Source of the DNA: Candidatus Poribacteria bacterium
GTDB taxonomy: Bacteria > Poribacteria > WGA-4E > WGA-3G
Assembly: GCA_964291315.2 (NCBI GenBank)
Contig: OZ219753.1
Coordinates: 2,368,001 to 2,432,000 of the forward strand
Direction of reading: 5' to 3'
Length of the DNA: 64,000 nt
Part shown: piece by piece, positions 1 to 64,000 of the stretch
Position numbering within the stretch: the stretch's first letter is position 1
Layout: each line of letters opens with the position of its first letter
Notes under the pieces: model-generated
What the model was told of the DNA's origin: nothing
The model's database searches: none
The model's input: the letters and a program-made list of their open reading frames with translations, nothing else
Program-made: the position numbers and the translations under genes

Positions 1-587
1 GCGTGTCTAACCCGTCTCTCCAAAGGCTCCAGCCACGCTGAACGAACAGGATCATACAAACCGAGAACCCCATCACGCTCGCCTAACTCTAAACCCAGCA
101 CAACCGACGGCAGACGATCCCCCACAAAACCTATCTCCTCATACACACCATCAACAAGACGATACCCGAGAAAAGAAGGCGACACCTCACCATAAGGATC
201 GTAAATGTAATACTCGCGCACCCCAAGCACCGACGCATACAGCTCACGCTTAGCAGTCAAGTCCTGCCTATACGTGCTGCGACTCGCTAACTCTAAGATA
301 AAATCGGGCGCATGTCCCTCTTCCCAGACCCGATAGGTGCGCCGCTGCTTTTTACTCACACCGAACACAACAAACACATCCGGCGATACCGATTTCCTCG
401 GGTTGCCCTCCTCATAATACAGCATCAGATTGCCAGAGACGTATGCATCGTTGACATCTTGGAAGTGGTGCTCCAGCATCTGAATGCAGTCGATCATAAG
501 TTTTCTGTGTTTGTCGGTTTCTGCCATAGGTTTATCGTCCGATTCGGGATAGACGAGCGTTGGAGCGGCTTTTATTTTGCTACACAT
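1..587 (-). CDS. Uma2 family (PD-(D/E)XK-like) endonuclease, copy 1; 3' end runs off the window
   Basis: Near-identical DNA to 931-1517 (offset 930); ATG at 587; same [17 protein letters not shown] start; not in the ORF track because it is truncated by the window edge. Confidence 0.9.
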   Translation of the reverse strand, partial: MCSKIKAAPTLVYPESDDKPMAETDKHRKLMIDCIQMLEHHFQDVNDAYVSGNLMLYYEEGNPRKSVSPDVFVVFGVSKKQRRTYRVWEEGHAPDFILELASRSTYRQDLTAKRELYASVLGVREYYIYDPYGEVSPSFLGYRLVDGVYEEIGFVGDRLPSVVLGLELGERDGVLGLYDPVRSAWLEPLERRVRH

Positions 588-632
588 AGGTCTGCCTCCT
601 GCCTCTACTATCGTAATGAACTTATAGAATAA

Positions 633-661
633 AGTATATCAGCAAAAGCTGGATATATCAA
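633..661 (-). promoter_or_regulatory. sigma70-like promoter of Uma2 copy 1 (repeated at 1563-1591 and 2535-2563)
   Basis: TTGATA-N17-TATACT on the minus strand; the spacer carries an imperfect palindrome (tatatcagc-aaaa-gctggatata). Confidence 0.6.
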
Positions 662-704
662 GTGGCTGATCTCAATAATTATCAAGGTTGCGTTGGGTAT
701 ATGA

Positions 705-1517
705 TTACGTGTCAGTTTTTAGGCGTTTGAGTTCAGCCAATGCGTCTGCGAGCTCTGCGTCTGCAGCGGCTGCTTGTTGTCGTGCTTCTTCTGCTTGATC
801 TTGAGCCTCTTGTCGTGCCTTTGCCTCTGCTTGTGCGCGGGCATCAGCCTCTTGTCGTGCCTTTGCCTCTGCTTGTGCGCGGGCATCAGCCTCTTGTCGT
901 GCCTTTGCCTCTGCGGCTGCGCGTGCATCGGCGTGTCTAACCCGTCTCTCCAAAGGCTCCAGCCACGCTGAACGAATAGGATCATACAACCCGAGAGCCC
1001 CATCACGCTCACCTAACTCTAAACCCAGCACAAGCGACGGCAGACGATCCCCCACAAAACCTATCTCCTCATACACACCATCAACAAGGCGATACCCGAG
1101 AAAAGAAGGCGACACCTCACCATAAGGATCGTAAATGTAATACTCGCGCACCCCAAGCACCGACGCATACAACTCACGCTTAGCAGTCAAGTCCTGCCGA
1201 TAGGTGCTGCGACTCGCTAACTCTAAGATAAAATCAGGCACCTGCCCCTCTTCCCAGACCCGATAGGTGCGCCGATCCTTTTTGCTGACACCGAAGACAA
1301 CAAACACATCCGGCGATACCGATTTCCTCGGGTTGCCCTCCTCATAATACAGCATCAGATTGCCAGAGACATATGCGTCGTTGACATCTTGGAAGTGGTG
1401 CTCCAGCATCTGAATGCAGTCGATCATAAGTTTTCTGTGTTTGTCGGTTTCTGCCATAGGTTTATCGTCCGATTCGGGATAGACGAGCGTTGGAGCGGCT
1501 TTTATTTTGCTACACAT
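705..1517 (-). CDS. Uma2 family endonuclease with C-terminal coiled-coil repeats, copy 2
   Basis: [29 protein letters not shown] and [15 protein letters not shown] motifs typical of Uma2/DUF820; Ala/Glu/Gln-rich tail. Confidence 0.9.
   Translation of the reverse strand: MCSKIKAAPTLVYPESDDKPMAETDKHRKLMIDCIQMLEHHFQDVNDAYVSGNLMLYYEEGNPRKSVSPDVFVVFGVSKKDRRTYRVWEEGQVPDFILELASRSTYRQDLTAKRELYASVLGVREYYIYDPYGEVSPSFLGYRLVDGVYEEIGFVGDRLPSLVLGLELGERDGALGLYDPIRSAWLEPLERRVRHADARAAAEAKARQEADARAQAEAKARQEADARAQAEAKARQEAQDQAEEARQQAAAADAELADALAELKRLKTDT
805..930. repeat. 42-bp tandem repeat x3 (encodes [14 protein letters not shown])
   Basis: Unit gcctcttgtcgtgcctttgcctctgcttgtgcgcgggcatca; third unit is variant. 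Confidence 0.95.
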
Positions 1518-1634
1518 AGGTCTGCCTCCTGCCTCTACTATCGTAATAAACTTATAGAATAAAGTATATCAGCAAAAGCTGGATATATCAAGTGGCTGAT
1601 CTCAATAATTATCAAGGTTGCGTTGGGTATATGA

Positions 1635-2489
1635 TTACGTGTCAGTTTTCAGGCGTTTGAGTTCAGCCAATGCGTCTGCGAGCTCTGCGTCTGCAGCGGC
1701 TGCTTGTTGTCGTGCTTCTTCTGCTTGATCTTGAGCCTCTTGTCGTGCCTTTGCCTCTGCTTGTGCGCGGGCATCAGCCTCTTGTCGTGCCTTTGCCTCT
1801 GCTTGTGCGCGGGCATCAGCCTCTTGTCGTGCCTTTGCCTCTGCTTGTGCGCGGGCATCAGCCTCTTGTCGTGCCTTTGCCTCTGCGGCTGCCCTGGCAT
1901 CGGCGTGTCTAACCCGTCTCTCCAAAGGCTCCAGCCACGCTGAACGAACAGGATCATACAAACCGAGAACCCCATCACGCTCACCTAACTCTAAACCCAG
2001 CACAAGCGACGGCAGACGATCCCCCACAAAACCTATCTCCTCATACACACCATCAACAAGACGATACCCGAGAAAAGAAGGCGACACCTCACCATAAAGA
2101 TCGTAAATGTAATACTCGCGCACCCCAAGCACCGACGCATACAGCTCACGCTTAGCAGTCAAGTCCTGCCGATACGTGCTGCGACTCGCCAACTCTAACA
2201 CAAAATCGGGCGAATGTCCCTCTTCCCAGACCCGATACGTCCGCCGCTGCTTTTTACTCACACCGAACACAACAAACACATCCGGCGATACCGATTTCCT
2301 CGGGTTGCCCTCCTCATAATACAGCATCAGATTGCCAGAGACGTATGCATCGTTGATATTTTCGAAGTGGTGCTTGAGCATTTGAATGCAATCCATCATG
2401 AGGTCTCTGTGTTTCTCGGTCTCTGCCATAGGTTTATCGTCCGATTCGGGATAGACGAGCGTTGGAGCGGCTTTTATTTTGCTACACAT
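1635..2489 (-). CDS. Uma2 family endonuclease with C-terminal coiled-coil repeats, copy 3
   Basis: Paralog of 705-1517 with one extra 14-aa repeat. Confidence 0.9.
1735..1902. repeat. 42-bp tandem repeat x4 (encodes [14 protein letters not shown])
   Basis: Same unit as 805-930 with one more copy. Confidence 0.95.
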
Positions 2490-11450: not shown

Positions 11451-11490
11451 TCTTCACGTTCCCCCCCCCGTTTTTCTTCTGAATACTCGG

Positions 11491-34599: not shown

Positions 34600-34629
34600 T
34601 TGACATATCTTAACGACTTAAGGTATGAT
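34600..34629 (+). promoter_or_regulatory. sigma70-like promoter with a CTTAA-N4-TTAAG palindrome in the spacer
   Basis: TTGACA-N18-TATGAT; CTTAAcgacTTAAG at 34609-34622. Confidence 0.65.
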
Positions 34630-34708
34630 TAACGCAAAATCTTTTTTCAACTTCACGTTATATTACTTTTACAGAAACCGTTCACCGATAGCATCCGGTA
34701 CATTGCGA

Positions 34709-34840
34709 ATGAAAAGACACGCGAACATCCCATCGATCCAAATAGGTGCTCCTGAAACATCCACTTCCATGTGCCTAAGTGTGCGTAAAGATGAGTCTCT
34801 TTGCGTGCCTATACCAGATTACCCCCCCCGCTTTATGTAA
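34709..34840 (+). CDS. Putative leader peptide (43 aa, MKRHANIP...DYPPRFM) with a C8 tract; extends to 35075 if the tract is C7 or C10
   Basis: ATG at 34709; C8 at 34822-34829; the shifted frame encodes RLTAFAPV (34884-34907), homologous to the leader at 62208-62231. Confidence 0.5.
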   Translation: MKRHANIPSIQIGAPETSTSMCLSVRKDESLCVPIPDYPPRFM

Positions 34841-34900
34841 GTTAAGTTCTTTATACAATCAGGTAGGCTCGGAAACGTTACTCCGGCTTACCGCCTTCGC

Positions 34901-34950
34901 GCCCGTGCCCACTCCGTTTTGGACGGAGCCCCTCAGCACGGGCTTTTTTT
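34901..34950 (+). terminator. Intrinsic terminator/attenuator inside the leader of the DUF1156 gene
   Basis: GCCCGTGC (34901-34908) pairs with GCACGGGC (34936-34943), followed by T7; internal ctccgt/acggag stem. Confidence 0.75.
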
Positions 34951-35049
34951 GTTGCAGTAGCATTTCACTACTGCAGGCTCCCCCGTTACACCCAACGCAG
35001 ACAATCCGTCAATTAAAGGCTGCCACCGCACAATCCATGGCAGGTTCAT

Positions 35050-56278: not shown

Positions 56279-59200
56279 CTATTTCCGGATGAGCATCTTC
56301 CGTGTAGCCGTGAAGTTGCGTGCGGTGAACGTATAGAAATAGACCCCGCTCGCAACAGACTCGCCCACCTCATTTTTGCCATCCCAATGCACAGCACGAG
56401 TCCGGGTGTTGTAGCGACCTGCGGGTTGATGCCCGACATCCAAAGTGCGCACCAACGCCCCGTTGGTTGCGTAGATACGCACCGTCACATCCGCAGCTTC
56501 GGAAAGTTGATACGGTATCCACGTCTCCGGATTGAACGGGTTCGGGTAGTTATGCAGAAGCACTGTCTTTTCAGGCAAGACAGGGCGAATGGGGCCATTA
56601 CCGGCGACCCTCGGGGTGCCGGGGGGAATCACCTCATAGTCGGTGCCACGGGCGAACCCGAAAAATCCACTCCACCCTCCAGATCTCTCGTAGACGGCAA
56701 CTAATAAAATGTTGTAGCCCTCTCTCAAGGTAACGGAGAACTGATCTTGGTAACCATTGGATCCTCGGTCCACAGGATTGGTGTGGACGAGTGTTCCGTT
56801 GAGCCAGACTTTCACAGCATCGTCGCTGCCAACAAACATTGTTGTCTTTTGTTCGCTCGGTGATTCCAAGGTGAGCGAGCCGTAGGCGACGTGATCGTCT
56901 ATATTGCCGGATCCCAAGCCGGTGTCGTTCGCCATTCGATTGAGGTCACCGTCGTCTGGGGATAATTCGCCTACTTTCCAGACCTTACCTCCGACCGGGC
57001 TCCCTTCCGTTGCGCCGTTATTGGCGATTTTGAGTTCCGTTACTTGTCCGCCGCTGGCTAACGCAAGGTAATCCTTGCCGGAAAGTGCCGCCGCTGCGCC
57101 CCCACTATTGCCTGTGGGGACGATCATCCAGAGCCATGGTCCTGCCATAGGTCCCCCAAAATCCCCAAAGCAAGGATTGCCTGCTATCCGGATATTAGTT
57201 CTGATAGGGAGTGCCTCTAAAGGCGAACAGTCCTCTATATCGTTGTTCCGCAAATCAAGCCTCTCCAAGTTTATTAAGCCTGCAAGGGACGAAACATCTG
57301 ATATATCGTTGTTCTCAAGGTACAACACCTTTAAACCGGTTAACCCTGCAAGCGGTGAGACATCTGATATATCGTTCGCATCCAGCTTCAATGTCCGCAA
57401 ACTGGTTAGAGAACGCAACGCAGAAATATCTTGTATGTCGTTGTTGATGAGTTCTAACCAGTCAAGCCGCGTCAGTGTCGCCAACGCAGACAGACCCCTG
57501 ACATTCGGGTTGTTTCGCAACTTAAGCCGTTGCAACTTTTTTAATCCCACGAGGGGCGAAACATCTGATATGACGTTGTTCTCAAGGTACAACACCTCTA
57601 AGTTTGTTAGACCTGCGAGCGGTGAGACATCTGATATGGCATTAGCGTCCAGATTCAACGTTTGCAAACTGGTTAGAGAGCGCAACGCCGAAATATCTGT
57701 GATTGCGTTATTAATGAGTTCCAACCATTCAAGTCGAGGGAGTTCCGCCAACGCAGACAGATCCTTGATACTGCAGTTGTTAAGTATGAGTCGCTCCAGT
57801 GCTTTTAAACCCCTTAGGGAGGGAACGGCGGAGATAGAGGCTTCGTTTCCCATTTCTATCCAATTCAGGTTGGGTAATTTGGCTAACGCGGAAAAATCCG
57901 AGATACGTGTGCGCCATGCATCTATCCGCTCTAAGCTGGTTAAACTAGCAAGAGATGACACGTCCGTGACGGGGTTGCCTGAAATACCTATCCCGTTCAA
58001 TTTGACGAGTCCGCTTAGCGGTGACACATCGGAGATGGCATTCTCCTCAAGCCCCATCCAATCTACATTGAGCAGGTCCGAAAGAGGCGATACATCGGTG
58101 ATGGCATTGTCCCGCAATTTAATGTTGTTCAATCTGGACAATTTAGCCAGCGGGGTCAAGTCGGAGATAGCGTTGTGACGGAGCTCTATCCGCTCCAGGT
58201 TTATCGCCTTCTCCAATCCTGTTAGGTCGCGGATGCCTTTACGATCGGCGACCAAACGCGTCAAACGTTTCATAGTTTCCACAGTAATTAACTCGTTTGG
58301 AGCTGGACGGAGGGTTTCCACAATCGCTGCTCGGAGGTTCGGGTCTGGCATGTAGAAGTCGAACCGAGTATCGTCCGGCTCGCACGTATCTGTTTCATGG
58401 CAGTCCACAGGCTTCTCGCCTGAAAACTCCGGAAACAGTTCGGTCCACACATCGCGTTTTACGTTCTTGCCATCTAGGAAAGGCGCTGAACCAAGGCTCT
58501 GTAACCTAGAGTCCTCACGGATCTTGGAGAGGAACACATTCATCTCCAAACCGACCGATGCGGCTGCATATGCCCTATCTACGTCCCCCCGGTACGCCTC
58601 GTAGAAGCGATGCACCGGTTCAATGCCGCCCAAAACGCCACCTGTCTTTTCCAAGGCAGCCTTGTAGCGCGCCGTGTCTTCATCTAAGAGACGATCCATC
58701 GCAGCCTGAGGTACATAAAGACGCAATGCCTGAGCCTTATCAAACGCCGGTTGCCTCGTCTGGTTAACAACTGAACGTACTTCATCTTCAAACCGCTTCA
58801 TCCCTTCCGTGTGGCAGCCGAAGCAGGATAAACCGTTGCGAACAACCGGATCATCCGCTGCTGGGTTGGATACGATCTCCGTCGGGGCAGCATTCAGTCG
58901 ATTGCCTGTCGCATCCGAGATATAGTACGCCTGCAGACCGTTCGGCAGATTGAACACCACTTCCCCACCGTCTTGTTGGAAAGACAACGGATGCGTGAAA
59001 ACGTTCTGTGCTCCCGTGCTACCCGCGAAGTCGTAGCTCTTCCAATACGCACCGTATCGGGACGTGTGGCGCTCCACAACGCGGTTATGATTGGAGACGC
59101 CCGAGTCATTCATACCCGCACGCCAGACACGCACGCCCGGCGCAGTCTGGAGGTTACGCTGAACATCTACGTCCAGCTTGCGTTCTAATTCCCGGTCTGT

Positions 59201-60049
59201 CCCCGGTAGGTCGAGGATGTCGTGATAAAGCGGGGGAAGCACAGCGGTTGCCAGAAACCAGTCGGCGTAGACATAAGGCACCTCGGTGCCCGTCACCTCG
59301 CGGAGTTTCGCGAGTTTCTCGCGTAATTGAGGTTTATCTTCGAATTCCATGCCGTATGGATAGTCCCTCTCAATTTTAGACCATGCGTCTCGTATCTCCC
59401 ATTCGTAGTTACGCACGTCGATATAGAACACCGTTTCAGCAGCATCAACGGGTTGCGGGTTGTGTATATCAAACCCCCACGAGAGGCTATTGACCAATTT
59501 TGCAAGGGCAACTTTGTAGGCGTTGAGTGCTTCGACCGTCTCCCCTGCATTGTAGAGGTGTGTCATCGTGAAATAGCGGGCGTAAGGTCGGTCGAACAGA
59601 TCGAGCGTCTGAAGATGTTGTTGCATCGCCGTAAGCATCTTGTTCGGGTTGATGAAGGTTACATAATGCTCGACCACCCAGGTAGGTGCGCCCGCTAAGA
59701 TCCAATTGCCAATCGTGCGGATGGAGGCATCGTCGAGTTTGGGTTGTCCGAGGGGCATCCGTTTTGCAAGATTTTTCGTAGTCAACCGCGTATAGAGTTT
59801 AGAGATGAGCGGTATTCCCGGCACGACGGCACCGCTTTCGATGAGAGTGGCGGGACCGGCTTCGTCAATGACGAGGTTTTCGGTAAAGGATCCGTGTTTG
59901 CCGTGGCAATTGAGACAGTTCTGTTCGAGGACGAGGAACGCTTTTTGAGCAATGTCTTGTTGCGCGTGTGCCGTCGTCCAGCTTATAGACACAAATGCTA
60001 AAACCGTTAGTATGTAAAAGAGTGGATAGCTCTCTTTCGCTGTTTTCAT
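56279..60049 (-). CDS. Secreted multidomain protein: c-type cytochrome region, internalin-like LRRs, PA14-like module, T9SS/FlgD-like C-terminal domain
   Basis: Signal peptide; CLNCH and CFGCH heme motifs; many LxxLxLxxNxIxDxSxL repeats; GSDDAVKVWLNG; NYPNPFNPETWIPYQL..SGVYFY. Confidence 0.8.
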   Translation of the reverse strand: MKTAKESYPLFYILTVLAFVSISWTTAHAQQDIAQKAFLVLEQNCLNCHGKHGSFTENLVIDEAGPATLIESGAVVPGIPLISKLYTRLTTKNLAKRMPLGQPKLDDASIRTIGNWILAGAPTWVVEHYVTFINPNKMLTAMQQHLQTLDLFDRPYARYFTMTHLYNAGETVEALNAYKVALAKLVNSLSWGFDIHNPQPVDAAETVFYIDVRNYEWEIRDAWSKIERDYPYGMEFEDKPQLREKLAKLREVTGTEVPYVYADWFLATAVLPPLYHDILDLPGTDRELERKLDVDVQRNLQTAPGVRVWRAGMNDSGVSNHNRVVERHTSRYGAYWKSYDFAGSTGAQNVFTHPLSFQQDGGEVVFNLPNGLQAYYISDATGNRLNAAPTEIVSNPAADDPVVRNGLSCFGCHTEGMKRFEDEVRSVVNQTRQPAFDKAQALRLYVPQAAMDRLLDEDTARYKAALEKTGGVLGGIEPVHRFYEAYRGDVDRAYAAASVGLEMNVFLSKIREDSRLQSLGSAPFLDGKNVKRDVWTELFPEFSGEKPVDCHETDTCEPDDTRFDFYMPDPNLRAAIVETLRPAPNELITVETMKRLTRLVADRKGIRDLTGLEKAINLERIELRHNAISDLTPLAKLSRLNNIKLRDNAITDVSPLSDLLNVDWMGLEENAISDVSPLSGLVKLNGIGISGNPVTDVSSLASLTSLERIDAWRTRISDFSALAKLPNLNWIEMGNEASISAVPSLRGLKALERLILNNCSIKDLSALAELPRLEWLELINNAITDISALRSLTSLQTLNLDANAISDVSPLAGLTNLEVLYLENNVISDVSPLVGLKKLQRLKLRNNPNVRGLSALATLTRLDWLELINNDIQDISALRSLTSLRTLKLDANDISDVSPLAGLTGLKVLYLENNDISDVSSLAGLINLERLDLRNNDIEDCSPLEALPIRTNIRIAGNPCFGDFGGPMAGPWLWMIVPTGNSGGAAAALSGKDYLALASGGQVTELKIANNGATEGSPVGGKVWKVGELSPDDGDLNRMANDTGLGSGNIDDHVAYGSLTLESPSEQKTTMFVGSDDAVKVWLNGTLVHTNPVDRGSNGYQDQFSVTLREGYNILLVAVYERSGGWSGFFGFARGTDYEVIPPGTPRVAGNGPIRPVLPEKTVLLHNYPNPFNPETWIPYQLSEAADVTVRIYATNGALVRTLDVGHQPAGRYNTRTRAVHWDGKNEVGESVASGVYFYTFTARNFTATRKMLIRK
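57290..57760. repeat. Internal tandem duplication of an LRR block (period about 267 bp)
   Basis: 57292-57493 is highly similar in DNA to 57559-57760. Confidence 0.75.
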
Positions 60050-60282: not shown

Positions 60283-60864
60283 TCATTCCTTCACCCCAGT
60301 CACAAATGTGATAATCCCCCCCGGATCCCAGTTGCCGGCTTTGTCTGCCCATGAAATTTCTATTGTATAGACCTCACTGGCTTGTAGGGGGAGCCCTTCC
60401 AGAAATCTCAGTAGCGTTATCTCTTTGCCAACTATGAATTTTTCCCAATTCATATCGAAATTTCTGGTATCGTTCCTTAGCTTTACCTTTGCATCATCGA
60501 TGTTTTCGTCAAAAGTAAAGGTAAAACGGTCTGTGTCTAGGTCAACGTCTACATCTCCATGGCTTATGGTGGTCCCGACAAGGAGCGGGGCTTGATTATC
60601 TTCTGGTTCTCTCTTTTCTTCTTCAATAGGCTCCGGCTCTGGCTCCGGCTCCGGCTTTTCCACAACCGGTTCCTCTATAACGGGATTCTCTACGACTGGT
60701 TGTGGCATAGGAGGGTTTGCCCTCTCGTCGTCAACTACGGGTGGAGTGGCTTCTTCCTCAATGATAGGTGGTACGGGGAATAACGAATCATCCTCCGTGT
60801 TGTCCGTAGAGCATCCAACTATGCAACCCATCAATAAGCATACAGCTAGAAACTTATATAACAT
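60283..60864 (-). CDS. Lipoprotein with Pro/Glu-rich linker and Ig-like (Big_5-like) domain
   Basis: MLYKFLAVCLLMGCIVGC lipobox; PEPEPEP linker; TFTFDE..YTI..DKAGN; start reassigned. Confidence 0.7.
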   Translation of the reverse strand: MLYKFLAVCLLMGCIVGCSTDNTEDDSLFPVPPIIEEEATPPVVDDERANPPMPQPVVENPVIEEPVVEKPEPEPEPEPIEEEKREPEDNQAPLLVGTTISHGDVDVDLDTDRFTFTFDENIDDAKVKLRNDTRNFDMNWEKFIVGKEITLLRFLEGLPLQASEVYTIEISWADKAGNWDPGGIITFVTGVKE

Positions 60865-60964
60865 ACGCTCACCTGTTAAATTTTCCTTGTATCGTATCTT
60901 ACGCATCAAAAGACACGTTTTTCGTTAAGATTTTCGCCAAAACGCTATCGCAAACACACCGAGG

Positions 60965-62074
60965 TCATTGATTCTTTTTTATATTGAATGTGTAAGTAAT
61001 AGTAACCCGAGTAGCGATTGGCGTTCCATTCCATATAGCGGGATAGAAAGTGGTTTTCTTCAACGCCTCGGCCGCTGCTGCCTCCAATCCAAATCCGAGG
61101 GTTGTACGTTCTACGATGTCTATCGGGATACCCTCTTCATTGATAGTGGCTTCTAAAACGACCTCACCGGTCTTCTCTGCATTTTTTGCGTCCTCTGGAT
61201 ACACCGGATCAACTTTGAATTTGTACTGGGGCCCAGCAACCTCAATATGGGGATCGTAGTCGATGGCGCTCGCTTCGCCGACATGTTCTCGATCCTCCTG
61301 CACAATCCCGCCAGTTTGCACTTCCGCTTGGACTGCTCCATTACGAGTGGAGGCTTGGTGAAAATTCAATCCGAAGCGATACAGCAATTCCGAGTTCTCG
61401 AACGAGAACTCAATGCTCCCGAGTGCGCTCATCGTGGGTGACAACTCTATTTCTAATCCTGCTTCGCCGGTGAAAAAATTCTGCGCGCTGTTCACATGTA
61501 CTTTCTTGGTCGTAGAGACGTTATTCCACGCCTGTGTATAGAATAGCCCAAAGAACGGTTTGAGGTTCCATTCATAGCCTGTATCAAGCAGGTGTAAGAA
61601 GCCCATACCGCCTCGAAGTGCCATATTTATAGAGTGCAGCGGTAAGTTTCCAGTTCTACCAATGTTTGTGTACTGCGTCCTAAAACCGCCTGAGAGGAAA
61701 AATTTCAGCCCCGTCATATTCATGTCGTTGACGTTTAAGAATCGGAGATCTAGAGAAGGACTGGGTGCTATCTGATAGGGATTTTGGGTGTCGGTCTCAA
61801 AAAAGGAGATACCGGGCAGCAGCGACATCTTCAAGTCAGGACTGAAGGTATAATCGAGACTACCTAAAATTGTTTGCGCACTAAAACGAAACGGGGCTTC
61901 GGTGCGTTCCGGAGGCCTATAACGTTGGTATCCCATACCGACCGCCGTTTTCCCAGCTGGCGATCTATAAAAGCCTGTTTGTGCAGATGTGGGTACAGAA
62001 AACACTGCCAGCACGAAAAACATTGCAAACCCCAAAATTCGATGATTGAATCGCATAGAAAATTCTCTTTCCAT
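60965..62074 (-). CDS. Predicted outer-membrane beta-barrel fused to a TonB C-terminal domain
   Basis: Signal peptide; alternating aromatic beta-strands ending YRFGLNF; C-terminal PVYPEDAK..GEVVLEATI..FYPA..NG.P. Confidence 0.65.
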   Translation of the reverse strand: MEREFSMRFNHRILGFAMFFVLAVFSVPTSAQTGFYRSPAGKTAVGMGYQRYRPPERTEAPFRFSAQTILGSLDYTFSPDLKMSLLPGISFFETDTQNPYQIAPSPSLDLRFLNVNDMNMTGLKFFLSGGFRTQYTNIGRTGNLPLHSINMALRGGMGFLHLLDTGYEWNLKPFFGLFYTQAWNNVSTTKKVHVNSAQNFFTGEAGLEIELSPTMSALGSIEFSFENSELLYRFGLNFHQASTRNGAVQAEVQTGGIVQEDREHVGEASAIDYDPHIEVAGPQYKFKVDPVYPEDAKNAEKTGEVVLEATINEEGIPIDIVERTTLGFGLEAAAAEALKKTTFYPAIWNGTPIATRVTITYTFNIKKNQ

Positions 62075-62272
62075 TTGTTATTGATAAGTTAAACATAGAG
62101 AAAATAAAAATGAAATTAGAGATGACACATCTGTCTTCTCTTATTAAAACCAACTTTATGCTGAGAAACCTCAGCAACGGCGCAATTTGCTGCTGGGGAA
62201 GCAGGCAAACAGGCGCAAAGTGGGTAACTCGGTGGATCGTGGACGTGTTTTCGGATAAACGGAATGAATTAC

Positions 62273-62419
62273 TTATTGTATGTGATGTAGGGGGGGGGGT
62301 GAATCGCTAAAAAGTAGGGTAGCAGCAGAACCTACGGAAGACAGAGACCGCTGCGCAGGATTAGTGTGACTAAATACCGCCGCCGTTTCGGATATGATGT
62401 TGATGGACAAATCTTTCAT
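62273..62419 (-). CDS. Putative leader peptide (48 aa, MKDLSINI...DSPPPLHHIQ) with a C10 tract; extends to 61965 if the tract is C8 or C11
   Basis: ATG at 62419 after GAGG; G10 at 62290-62299 on the plus strand; the shifted frame encodes RVTHFAPV and RFLSIK. Confidence 0.5.
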   Translation of the reverse strand: MKDLSINIISETAAVFSHTNPAQRSLSSVGSAATLLFSDSPPPLHHIQ

Positions 62420-62504
62420 GCGCCTCACTGATTAACACTGATAGGATTAACGGAGCCTATCAATGTTACCTTCGGATTCTCTTTTTTCACAATTTTCATT
62501 TTCA

Positions 62505-62533
62505 ATTATACCTTAAACTGTTAAGTATGTCAA
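62505..62533 (-). promoter_or_regulatory. Consensus sigma70 promoter with a CTTAA-N4-TTAAG palindrome
   Basis: TTGACA-N17-TATAAT; palindrome at 62512-62525. Confidence 0.75.
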
Positions 62534-62668: not shown

Positions 62669-64000
62669 CTAAACCGCATCAAACAGAGACGCTTCCATCG
62701 GCTTGCCTGTCCAAGGATTCGTCAACGGCGGCAACCTTAGCAGGACGTCCCAACGCTTCCCACAACTATAGTATTCCTCTATAGAAAAACACTGGATTGG
62801 ATCGTAAGTAGTGATCCCCATTTGGATCGCAGGCAGCTGATGTTGCCAACGCTTCTGAGCCGTCTGGGCATCGCGGGTGATAAGGATGCCCATCGCAGCG
62901 TTATGGTTGCGAATCGTTGTCTGCAGACGTTCATACTTCGACTTTTGCTGTCCCTTTGCCCCGGTGACCTGCACTAATATCGCTCGCTGATCCATATTGT
63001 CGGGTTTATCGCGCATCATGCCGAAGCCGTCGATGCCGTCGTCGGCTGTCTTCTTCGGGTTCGCCGCAAACCCATCTATTAGGGATACCGCCCAATCTTG
63101 AAATTTAAAGGGTTCTGTATCTGCAAGTTGATATGCTGTTGTGGTATCAATAGGCAAACCTAAGATGGGCATTGTAGGGAATCCATTGGGTTTGAGTCGG
63201 TAGTTATTGACGAGTTCTAAGGCGAAGGGTAGTATGTCTATGCCTATAGCGTATCTGTTGTGCTTTTTTGCTGCTTCTATGGTTGTGCCGCATCCACAAA
63301 AGGGGTCTAAGACGATGTGGTTAGGATTGGAGGAGGCTTTGATAATCCGTTCGTAGAGAGCCAGCGGCTTTTGCGTTGGATAACCCAGACGTTCATCAGA
63401 CATTGGATTAATGATCGGTATATCCCAGACATCGTCTACAGGTGTACCTTTTGGATGTGGCATGTATCTTTTACCTGAACTACTCACGATGCCTTCCTTG
63501 GCATACCCACTTGTTGGTTTATACGGGACTCTCACTTCGTCAATGTTAAAACAATAATCTACGGTAGCAGAACGAACATACCACAAAATAATATCATGTT
63601 TTCGCGAAAAATAGGTTTTAGACCTGCCTCCGCCTGTGTAATGCCAGACAATTTCGTTACGGAAATTCTTTTCATCGAATATAGCATCCATCACGAGTTT
63701 AAGGTAATGACTGGCATACGGGTCGCAATGCAGATAAACGCTCCCAGTCGGCTTGAGAATACGCTGCATCTCAAATAACCTTTCCGCCATATAAGAGGTA
63801 TAGGAAAGCATCTTGGACTTCGGAATACAGAGATCAAACGCTTGTATCACCTTTGACGCAGGATTCGCAATCGCAGACTTTACACGCTCCACGCGTTCGG
63901 CTGACGCATCGTCCCAGTCCCAGATATCATCAAACGCTTTTATCTGTGGATCAATATTCCGTAATCCGCTGCCTTTGAAGATGGTGTTGTAGGTGCGGTT
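62669..64000 (-). CDS. Site-specific DNA methyltransferase (N6-A/N4-C, beta class) with C-terminal Mrr-like domain; 5' end beyond the window
   Basis: Frame open to the window edge (NRTYNTIF..AFDDIWDW); GSVYLHCD, FRNEIVW, YPTQKP, DPFCGCGTT; C-terminal FQDWAV..DDGIDG..VQV. Confidence 0.85.
   Translation of the reverse strand, partial: NRTYNTIFKGSGLRNIDPQIKAFDDIWDWDDASAERVERVKSAIANPASKVIQAFDLCIPKSKMLSYTSYMAERLFEMQRILKPTGSVYLHCDPYASHYLKLVMDAIFDEKNFRNEIVWHYTGGGRSKTYFSRKHDIILWYVRSATVDYCFNIDEVRVPYKPTSGYAKEGIVSSSGKRYMPHPKGTPVDDVWDIPIINPMSDERLGYPTQKPLALYERIIKASSNPNHIVLDPFCGCGTTIEAAKKHNRYAIGIDILPFALELVNNYRLKPNGFPTMPILGLPIDTTTAYQLADTEPFKFQDWAVSLIDGFAANPKKTADDGIDGFGMMRDKPDNMDQRAILVQVTGAKGQQKSKYERLQTTIRNHNAAMGILITRDAQTAQKRWQHQLPAIQMGITTYDPIQCFSIEEYYSCGKRWDVLLRLPPLTNPWTGKPMEASLFDAV

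Follow-up and report, generated by a model that had tools for sequence, protein, structure and literature searches.

Poly-C leaders in a Candidatus Poribacteria genome: a probable family of phase-variable leader-peptide attenuators

Introduction

How might a run of ten cytosines, set in a short reading frame upstream of a group of envelope genes, decide whether those genes are expressed? The question is raised by a locus that we call leader B, which lies towards the right-hand end of a 64,000-nucleotide (nt) stretch of DNA from a Candidatus Poribacteria bacterium (assembly GCA_964291315.2, contig OZ219753.1, positions 2,368,001 to 2,432,000 of the forward strand). This whole stretch is referred to below as the window, and coordinates are those of the window unless another contig or locus is named. 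An earlier note, made from the letters of the window alone, had described leader B and put forward phase variation of its reading frame at the level of DNA. Our computational analysis strengthens that core idea with other copies and other genomes, and corrects it in scope and in detail. Leader B proves to be one member of a large family of leaders in which an open reading frame (ORF) runs into a C tract of variable length, and on the sequence evidence it is probably a phase-variable leader-peptide attenuator in which the length of the tract sets the leader frame.

A precedent for such a device comes from the pil1 and pil3 loci of Streptococcus gallolyticus, where GCAGA repeats lie within a leader-peptide gene and repeat numbers that shift the frame extend the peptide into or past a terminator, as was shown by experiment (Danne et al. 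2014, PMC3894217). As described there for pil1, ribosomes on the long leader prevent termination, which gives the ON state, and the short frame gives the OFF state (PMC3894217). In the literature that our search returned, switching of a leader peptide and terminator by a repeat had been demonstrated only for these two pilus loci of one streptococcus, and the same search found no relevant paper on phase variation in Poribacteria.

Results

Layout of leader B

All features of leader B lie on the minus strand of the window and are as follows.

62576-62548, minus strand: second promoter-like site, TTGACC-N17-TATAAT, agreeing with the consensus at 11 of 12 positions, 43 nt upstream of the main promoter
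62533-62505, minus strand: main promoter, TTGACA-N17-TATAAT, agreeing with the consensus at 12 of 12 positions; the spacer is kept between copies
62468-62433, minus strand: hairpin at the 5' end of the leader RNA, 13 pairs including one G-U, read off the sequence; kept in a subset of copies
62273..62428, minus strand: leader ORF, starting at GTG 62428 or at the in-frame ATG 62419; 51 amino acids from the GTG
62426-62423, minus strand: GAGG ahead of the leader ORF
62307-62309, minus strand: TAG that shuts the long frame immediately before the tract
62290-62299, minus strand: C10 tract (G10 on the plus strand), the presumed slippery switch
62265..62289, minus strand: conserved motif after the tract with quick stops, TAA 62275-62273 in the current frame and TAA 62271-62269 in a second frame; includes the conserved RTAAGT
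61965..62306, minus strand: long frame, entered only with C8, C11 or C14; stop at 61967-61965
62154..62221, minus strand: structured RNA (the 'FAPV' region), two hairpins enclosed by an outer stem and then UUGGUUUU; homologous to the terminator of orthologous leaders
62098..62141, minus strand: terminator-like module, hairpin gagaagaca/tgtcatctc with a U-rich run; common to other loci of the genome

The promoter, hairpin, GAGG, ATG, 40 codons, C10 tract and stop at 62273 thus sit where the earlier note had placed them; the second promoter-like site was absent from its list. A tandem promoter pair resembling that of leader B is found elsewhere in the same genome, at C4:2515037-2515121. Read from the ATG, the leader ORF consists of 40 codons, the proline codons of the tract and five further codons before the TAA at 62275-62273. 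Leader B has the arrangement that attenuation of the pil1 type requires, a promoter followed by an ORF that has a start codon and contains the repeat.

Beyond the tract the first stops of the three frames lie at +14, +18 and +322. The long frame is open for only 7 nt upstream of the tract and runs 322 nt past it, spanning the structured region, the hairpin with its U-run, the ribosome-binding site and the gene start. Its earliest internal start codon is TTG 62177, and both candidate starts of the first downstream gene, 62074 and 62056, fall inside it. Frame analysis bore out the earlier description of a frame that is shut by a TAG before the tract, is reached with C8 or C11 and continues to 61965 past the start at 62074. 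The frame arithmetic also held when rechecked: leader A, another family member in the window, needs one C fewer or two more, and leader B needs one C more or two fewer.

The RNA that follows the tract of leader B has a minimum-energy fold of -46.8 kcal/mol, compared with -34.0 +/- 3.7 kcal/mol for shuffled sequences (z -3.45), and is more stable than all 200 shuffles, none of which equalled it. The stems tttgcctgct/agcagcaaa, gctgagg/cctcagc and gagaagaca/tgtcatctc are all present in this fold; the 1:2, 2:3, 3:4 pattern of alternative pairing that the earlier note drew from its stems was not confirmed. Such a trp-like scheme is unsupported in the orthologous leaders, which carry one plain terminator that is traversed by the long frame. 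We therefore rejected an amino-acid-sensing attenuator of the trp or his type: proline codons are present, but the genes concerned are envelope, secreted and defence genes, and in the orthologues alternative pairing is not conserved and there is one terminator each. The 'FAPV' stretch, which the earlier note called a conserved frame, owes its conservation to the nucleotide level and not to a peptide: its homologue in orthologous leaders is the 5' arm of the terminator stem. The long frame as a real protein was likewise rejected, because its translation is poorly conserved and close orthologues hold different frames open, from which it follows that the conserved property is openness and not a peptide.

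Runs of at least eight C are present three times in the window, equal to six overlapping matches where 1.06 were expected; six matches were reached in 2 of 100 shuffles.

Anatomy shared across the family

We analysed 59 instances of the leader, 25 from this genome and 34 from other genomes. Six further profile matches in this genome were excluded because their search span contained no run of at least six C. Thirty-eight loci were inspected in other genomes, three of which had no tract and one no C run, and these four were excluded; L048 and L072 have identical sequence. Statistical comparisons used 33 cluster representatives at 75% identity, with chance estimated from dinucleotide shuffles.

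The instances appear to follow a common build, in which a near-consensus promoter precedes a predicted ORF of ~42 codons that leads into the C tract, two frames meet quick stops, and the third frame is open through the putative terminator and often as far as the gene start. All 59 instances, and all 33 representatives, have an ORF that possesses a start codon, is at least 34 codons long and enters the tract; among shuffles the mean chance of this is 0.145. The middle of this ORF has diverged, and close copies read it in different frames, yet an ORF into the tract is kept. Two of the three frames are shut within 33 nt past the tract in 26/34 instances from other genomes and 12/25 from this one, and one of the quick stops is the conserved TAA within the motif RTAAGT. 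In 53/59 instances one frame is free of stops all the way from the tract through the predicted terminator; combined over the 33 representatives, this openness has a Fisher's P of about 1e-7, a value that overstates the significance because the representatives are related.

The far end of the long frame is also patterned. Among the instances from other genomes, a hairpin with a T-run lies 89-124 nt past the tract in 26 of 34, and the long frame ends between -8 and +5 nt from the predicted start codon in 16 of 33, which represent three gene families. Two unrelated families have the start context TTGAnTAA, which carries stops in both other frames, and in three copies from this genome, with the tract 64 nt upstream of the ATG, the long frame shares the reading frame of the gene. 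That the long frame so often ends on the gene start codon suggests translational coupling as an added component.

These frame relations bear on a different explanation, in which the C run together with its flanks would serve for binding at the level of RNA or DNA, for example as a loading site for Rho or for a poly(C)-binding protein, and the reading frames would be incidental. Poly(C) is a classic Rho ligand, the RNA downstream of the tract is C-rich and G-poor, and the flank GATTA-Cn-GCT is shared with the tracts of unrelated genes in either orientation, which hints at a constraint at the level of DNA. A binding element leaves unexplained, however, why an ORF of constant length enters the tract in every one of the 59 instances when chance gives 0.145, why quick stops are conserved in two frames and why, in 16 of the 33 instances just described, the gene start is where the long frame stops. 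No Rfam family matches the leaders either: at gathering score, Rfam 15 returned one tRNA only for the window and 0 matches for twenty leader loci, and a search of the leader region up to E = 10 yielded no meaningful match. We consider a binding element improbable, and the attenuator whose frame is set by tract length the better account of the shared anatomy.

Size and distribution of the family

The earlier note regarded leader B as the second copy of a two-copy system. A search of the whole genome (4.4 Mb in 4 contigs) revealed a family instead. BLAST with leaders A and B returned many partial and full copies, assembled from recurring modules. A profile of the leader ORF and tract gave 31 matches, in 23 of which the same position carries at least eight C, and 22 of the 31 are preceded by a promoter that fits TTGAYA-N16-18-TAYAHT; we put the number of leader copies in this genome at about 25-31. 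A sequence-only covariance model, built from 20 of these copies, matched 45/60 other genomes of the genus (E <= 1e-3). In a sample of the phylum (E <= 1e-4) the family was detected in 35/81 genomes of the same taxonomic family and in 0/39 genomes of seven other families. Because the model favours the genome from which it was built, these genome counts are lower bounds.

Simpler searches were less sensitive. BLAST of leader B DNA against 60 relatives gave no match, a miss that reflects limited sensitivity, since the profile model later detected the family. An IUPAC pattern around the tract recovered only 5 of about 24 loci in this genome and was dropped, and a scan of metagenome contigs for flanks specific to leader B with a variable tract gave 0 matches.

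Orthologues of the first gene behind leader B, which encodes a protein with a TonB_C domain, allowed comparison across species. Six of nine orthologue loci have a poly-C leader and a clear terminator 175-193 nt ahead of the gene; of the remainder, one (L050) has a leader with a decayed tract and two have no leader. Tract and flanks are retained at orthologous loci whose proteins share 63-76% identity across species. At L050:2216-2600, inserted DNA splits the promoter from the leader body, and ctctttcct is what decay has left of the C tract.

The modules also occur apart from one another. The terminator-like end module of leader B is repeated at eight or more loci of this genome. The module, comprising hairpin, U-run, AT-rich stretch and ribosome-binding site, is also found without leader ORF and tract ahead of genes of the MLWNK... 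lamin-tail family, for example at C4:148574-148673, C4:1026036-1026130 and C4:2515k, and some of these tract-less loci have an apparent internal promoter. We rejected the end of a mobile element or a miniature inverted-repeat transposable element as an explanation: the modules recur, but no transposase or terminal repeats were seen, and leaders occupy orthologous positions in different species.

Downstream of the leaders are genes for lamin-tail-domain, FGE-sulfatase and LamG secreted proteins, a TonB-dependent receptor, DUF4007, DUF499 with a HEPN domain, and N6_N4 and DUF1156 DNA methylases. These classes are typical of contingency loci.

Variation in tract length

The tract is retained at the same leader position in 23 copies from this genome and 34 instances from other genomes, and its length varies widely. 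In other genomes the lengths (number of instances in brackets) are 8 (4), 9 (8), 10 (8), 11 (3), 12 (4), 13 (3), 14 (2), 16 (1) and 17 (1), and in this genome 6 (2), 8 (11), 9 (10) and 10 (2). Fifteen of the 59 instances have their leader ORF in the long frame, so that the states are mixed. The anatomy of the leaders, its conservation and the variability of the tract are direct observations. Together with the conserved flanks, these comparisons point to a tract that has been kept over evolutionary time while its length is polymorphic, as a contingency locus requires.

Variation at leader B itself was read from assembled contigs (Logan) of three sequencing runs belonging to one study; none of the runs listed as containing this stretch was an RNA run. 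A contig of run X1 spans 61608-62313 (706 nt) without any difference and has C10. The strain in run X2 differs at ~2.5% of sites; a unitig with a depth of 3208 leads up to the tract, and the contigs that follow have one base fewer (C9) at a depth of 2348 and two bases fewer (C8) at a depth of 305. Of the four indels that separate the run contigs from the leader B locus in 2 kb, two sit at the tract.

The same data speak to whether the leader might be a remnant or an artefact, that is, a set of decaying copies of a dispersed promoter cassette or a product of homopolymer miscalls, its tract having no regulatory role. Leader modules do recur separately at other loci, BLAST finds no match at the DNA level in the 60 relatives, and long-read assemblies are error-prone in homopolymer length. 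Against this, an unselected run of C8-C17 would decay, as it has in L050, but tract and flanks are retained at the orthologous loci across the species compared, and the X1 contigs reproduce C10 with zero differences over the 706 nt. We judge a remnant or artefact highly improbable and retain the phase-variable attenuator.

G and C tracts in restriction-modification genes

Sixty-five runs of eight or more G or C are present in this genome, 23 of them within profile-detected leaders. A further 28 runs, of 8-9 G or C, lie exactly where two long restriction-modification ORFs abut in different frames. The split genes are of the Type III mod, Eco57I/MmeI-type IIG and N6_N4 methylase kinds and make up four or five near-identical multi-copy families. 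Four examples, all outside the window, are listed.

C4:1055979: split restriction-modification gene
C4:180511: split restriction-modification gene
C4:461879: split restriction-modification gene
C1:431360: split restriction-modification gene

That 28 pairs of restriction-modification ORFs are split at tracts indicates that the organism carries classical contingency tracts. All 28 of the 28 are out of frame as assembled, and all would be in frame with a tract of 10 or 7. The flank GATTA-Cn-GCT is common to leaders and restriction-modification tracts, in opposite orientation relative to the gene, and in methylase genes the same tract and flank, read as a G run, encode glycine.

These genes are relevant to a third alternative, a non-heritable switch in which RNA polymerase or the ribosome responds to the C run and the leader is a sensing attenuator. 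The response could come about through polyproline stalling dependent on EF-P or on the supply or modification of tRNA-Pro, through +1 or -1 ribosomal slippage on CCC, or through transcriptional slippage, and the fraction of ribosomes in the long frame would then be graded and vary with conditions. The leader ORF always decodes the tract as two or more proline codons near its end, and the layout of stops and frames fits such a sensor equally well. The Salmonella mgtL and mgtP leaders are proline-codon ORFs that control termination, CCC-C is a known slippery site, and rescue by slippage during expression would account for all 28 restriction-modification genes being out of frame. Tracts of up to C17, however, far exceed what stalling needs, tract length differs in the DNA between genomes and between runs, the glycine-coding G run of the methylase genes is the same tract with the same flank, and the regulated genes are unconnected with proline. 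We therefore think it unlikely that the leaders are sensing attenuators in place of frame switches set in DNA, although slippage or stalling can coexist with DNA-level switching.

Genes behind leaders B and A and their surroundings

The earlier note had assigned the three genes downstream of leader B to the envelope or cell surface, and domain searches agree, finding TonB_C, Big_5 and leucine-rich-repeat domains. These genes and leader A are as follows.

60965..62074, minus strand: first gene under predicted control, envelope protein with a TonB C-terminal domain (TonB_C match 5.5e-12)
60283..60909, minus strand: second gene, protein with a bacterial Ig-like Big_5 domain (domain search)
56279..60049, minus strand: third gene, leucine-rich-repeat protein of 1256 residues with a C-terminal sorting-type domain (domain search)
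34600..35049, plus strand: leader A, with a C8 tract at 34822-34829 and a clear intrinsic terminator, ahead of a DUF1156 DNA methylase of 929 residues

The start at 62074 is that of the longest ORF; the likely true start of the first gene is ATG 62056, which has ggaaagag ahead of it at 62072-62065 and agrees with the start context of the orthologues. The leucine-rich-repeat gene holds a 267-nt tandem duplication at 57242-57775. The terminator of leader A (-29.3 kcal/mol) has its T-run 114 nt past the tract, and this leader has two near-identical paralogues (C4:3144k with C9 and C1:9k with C8) and a diverged one (C4:342k with C6).

About 405 nt past the right end of the window, at C4:2432405-2432412, there is a G8 tract that has leader-like flanks and is twinned with C4:1500959. 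It precedes an N6_N4 methylase gene on the minus strand (62669-63892), which places two tract-bearing units head to tail. At 11461-11469 a C9 run, G9 on the minus strand, lies 10 nt upstream of the ATG of an ORF judged by eye to be QueF-like; it is not of the leader type and may be a ribosome-binding site or another tract. The left end of the window (1-2202) holds three copies of a repeat of ~930-970 nt.

Discussion

We propose the following sequence of events for leader B and its relatives. A strong constitutive promoter would yield the leader RNA, and ribosomes would initiate at the ORF of ~42 codons and enter the C tract, the length of which would be readily altered during DNA replication. 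Tract length modulo 3 would then fix the frame in which ribosomes leave the tract. In the short frames they would be released within about 20 nt, and the RNA would fold, so that transcription stops or the ribosome-binding site of the gene goes unused (OFF). In the third frame they would traverse the structured or terminator region, block formation of the terminator and reach the gene start codon (ON). With C10, as assembled, leader B is predicted to be OFF for the TonB_C, Big_5 and leucine-rich-repeat genes; C9 would also be OFF, and C8 or C11 would be ON.

Several observations weigh against this mechanism. Transcription, translation of the leader ORF, termination and the direction of the effect are all predictions from sequence. 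Leader B has no canonical intrinsic terminator, a strict terminator scan returning 0, and has in its place only a structured region that leads into UUUU, and a weak hairpin trailed by a U-run. Its long frame extends 89 nt past the gene start and could hinder initiation there rather than help it. In the family at large, ribosome-binding sites ahead of the leader ORF are weak or absent in many copies, and 6/59 instances are without an open frame. Past the early stops, the other two frames average 1.9 stops in the G+C-rich terminator region; this region is thus stop-poor in all three frames, and in any one sequence an open long frame exceeds chance only moderately (P 0.01-0.68). At a depth of about 3000-fold, the minor C8 contig of X2 could reflect sequencing error, or it could come from a second strain, and the X1 and X2 lengths, coming from contigs, are unable to show switching within a clone. 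Finally, the uniform out-of-frame state of the restriction-modification genes may point to under-calling of homopolymers in the assembly, such as long tracts in its repeated genes, in which case the present states may be wrong; counter to this, five of five other G8 runs inside long ORFs are in frame.

The comparison with pil1 and pil3, as far as the account of those loci goes, shows both likeness and difference (PMC3894217). Promoter, repeat-bearing leader ORF, surface targets and the proposed logic of frame-dependent readthrough are common to both, and in leader A and most of the leaders from other genomes so is a predicted terminator. The Poribacteria leaders have a homopolymer of C8-C17 instead of GCAGA, at dozens of loci per genome rather than the two described in that account, and a promoter and leader that form a common cassette. 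They belong to a Gram-negative, uncultivated sponge symbiont and are known here from sequence alone. Their long frame often ends on the gene start codon, and their targets include DNA methylases and defence operons, features that also set them apart from pil1 and pil3 as described.

Classical contingency loci and phasevarions have G or C tracts within the coding regions of surface-protein and Type III mod genes, as in Neisseria, Haemophilus, Helicobacter and Campylobacter. The Poribacteria leaders resemble them in a selected long homopolymer, a length that varies between strains, one frame in three that would be ON, and the same classes of target. They differ in that the tract sits outside the regulated gene and its promoter, in an ORF of its own further upstream, and in that the predicted output is readthrough or coupling and not truncation of a protein. 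In pyrBI of Escherichia coli the leader ORF also extends through the attenuator, and a ribosome close behind the polymerase blocks the hairpin. Whereas pyrBI, mgtL and mgtP sense a metabolite or the state of translation, the variable in the Poribacteria leaders would be the reading frame set by tract length. Phase variation by termination in a leader is also described for E. coli fim and Clostridioides difficile flgB, where it operates through invertible DNA (PMC12360218). There too a stochastic change of DNA in the leader decides termination before the operon; as characterised in that source, however, these systems use site-specific inversion and Rho, and have neither a repeat tract nor a leader ORF.

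At the scale of the genome, a possible but tentative extension of these findings is a switchboard, in which one cassette (promoter, ORF of ~42 codons, C tract, terminator and stop-start overlap) has been copied before dozens of operons, each of which would flip independently by tract length. Together with the ~28 tract-bearing restriction-modification genes it would generate combinatorial surfaces and defences, and the GATTA-Cn-GCT flank may mark a module that spreads by recombination. What would be new here is a leader switch based on a homopolymer and present as a large family in an uncultivated sponge-symbiont phylum, ahead of envelope, secreted, methylase and defence genes. If the proposal is correct, the leaders would constitute a compact and portable stochastic switch, and tract lengths and 'frameshifted' genes in these genomes would be states and not errors, a warning for their annotation. 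The operons switched would cover surface proteins, nutrient uptake, DNA methylases and phage defence. Heterogeneity of surface and defence would then arise without dedicated regulators, and a clonal population of the symbiont would present mixed surfaces and defences to its host and to phages.

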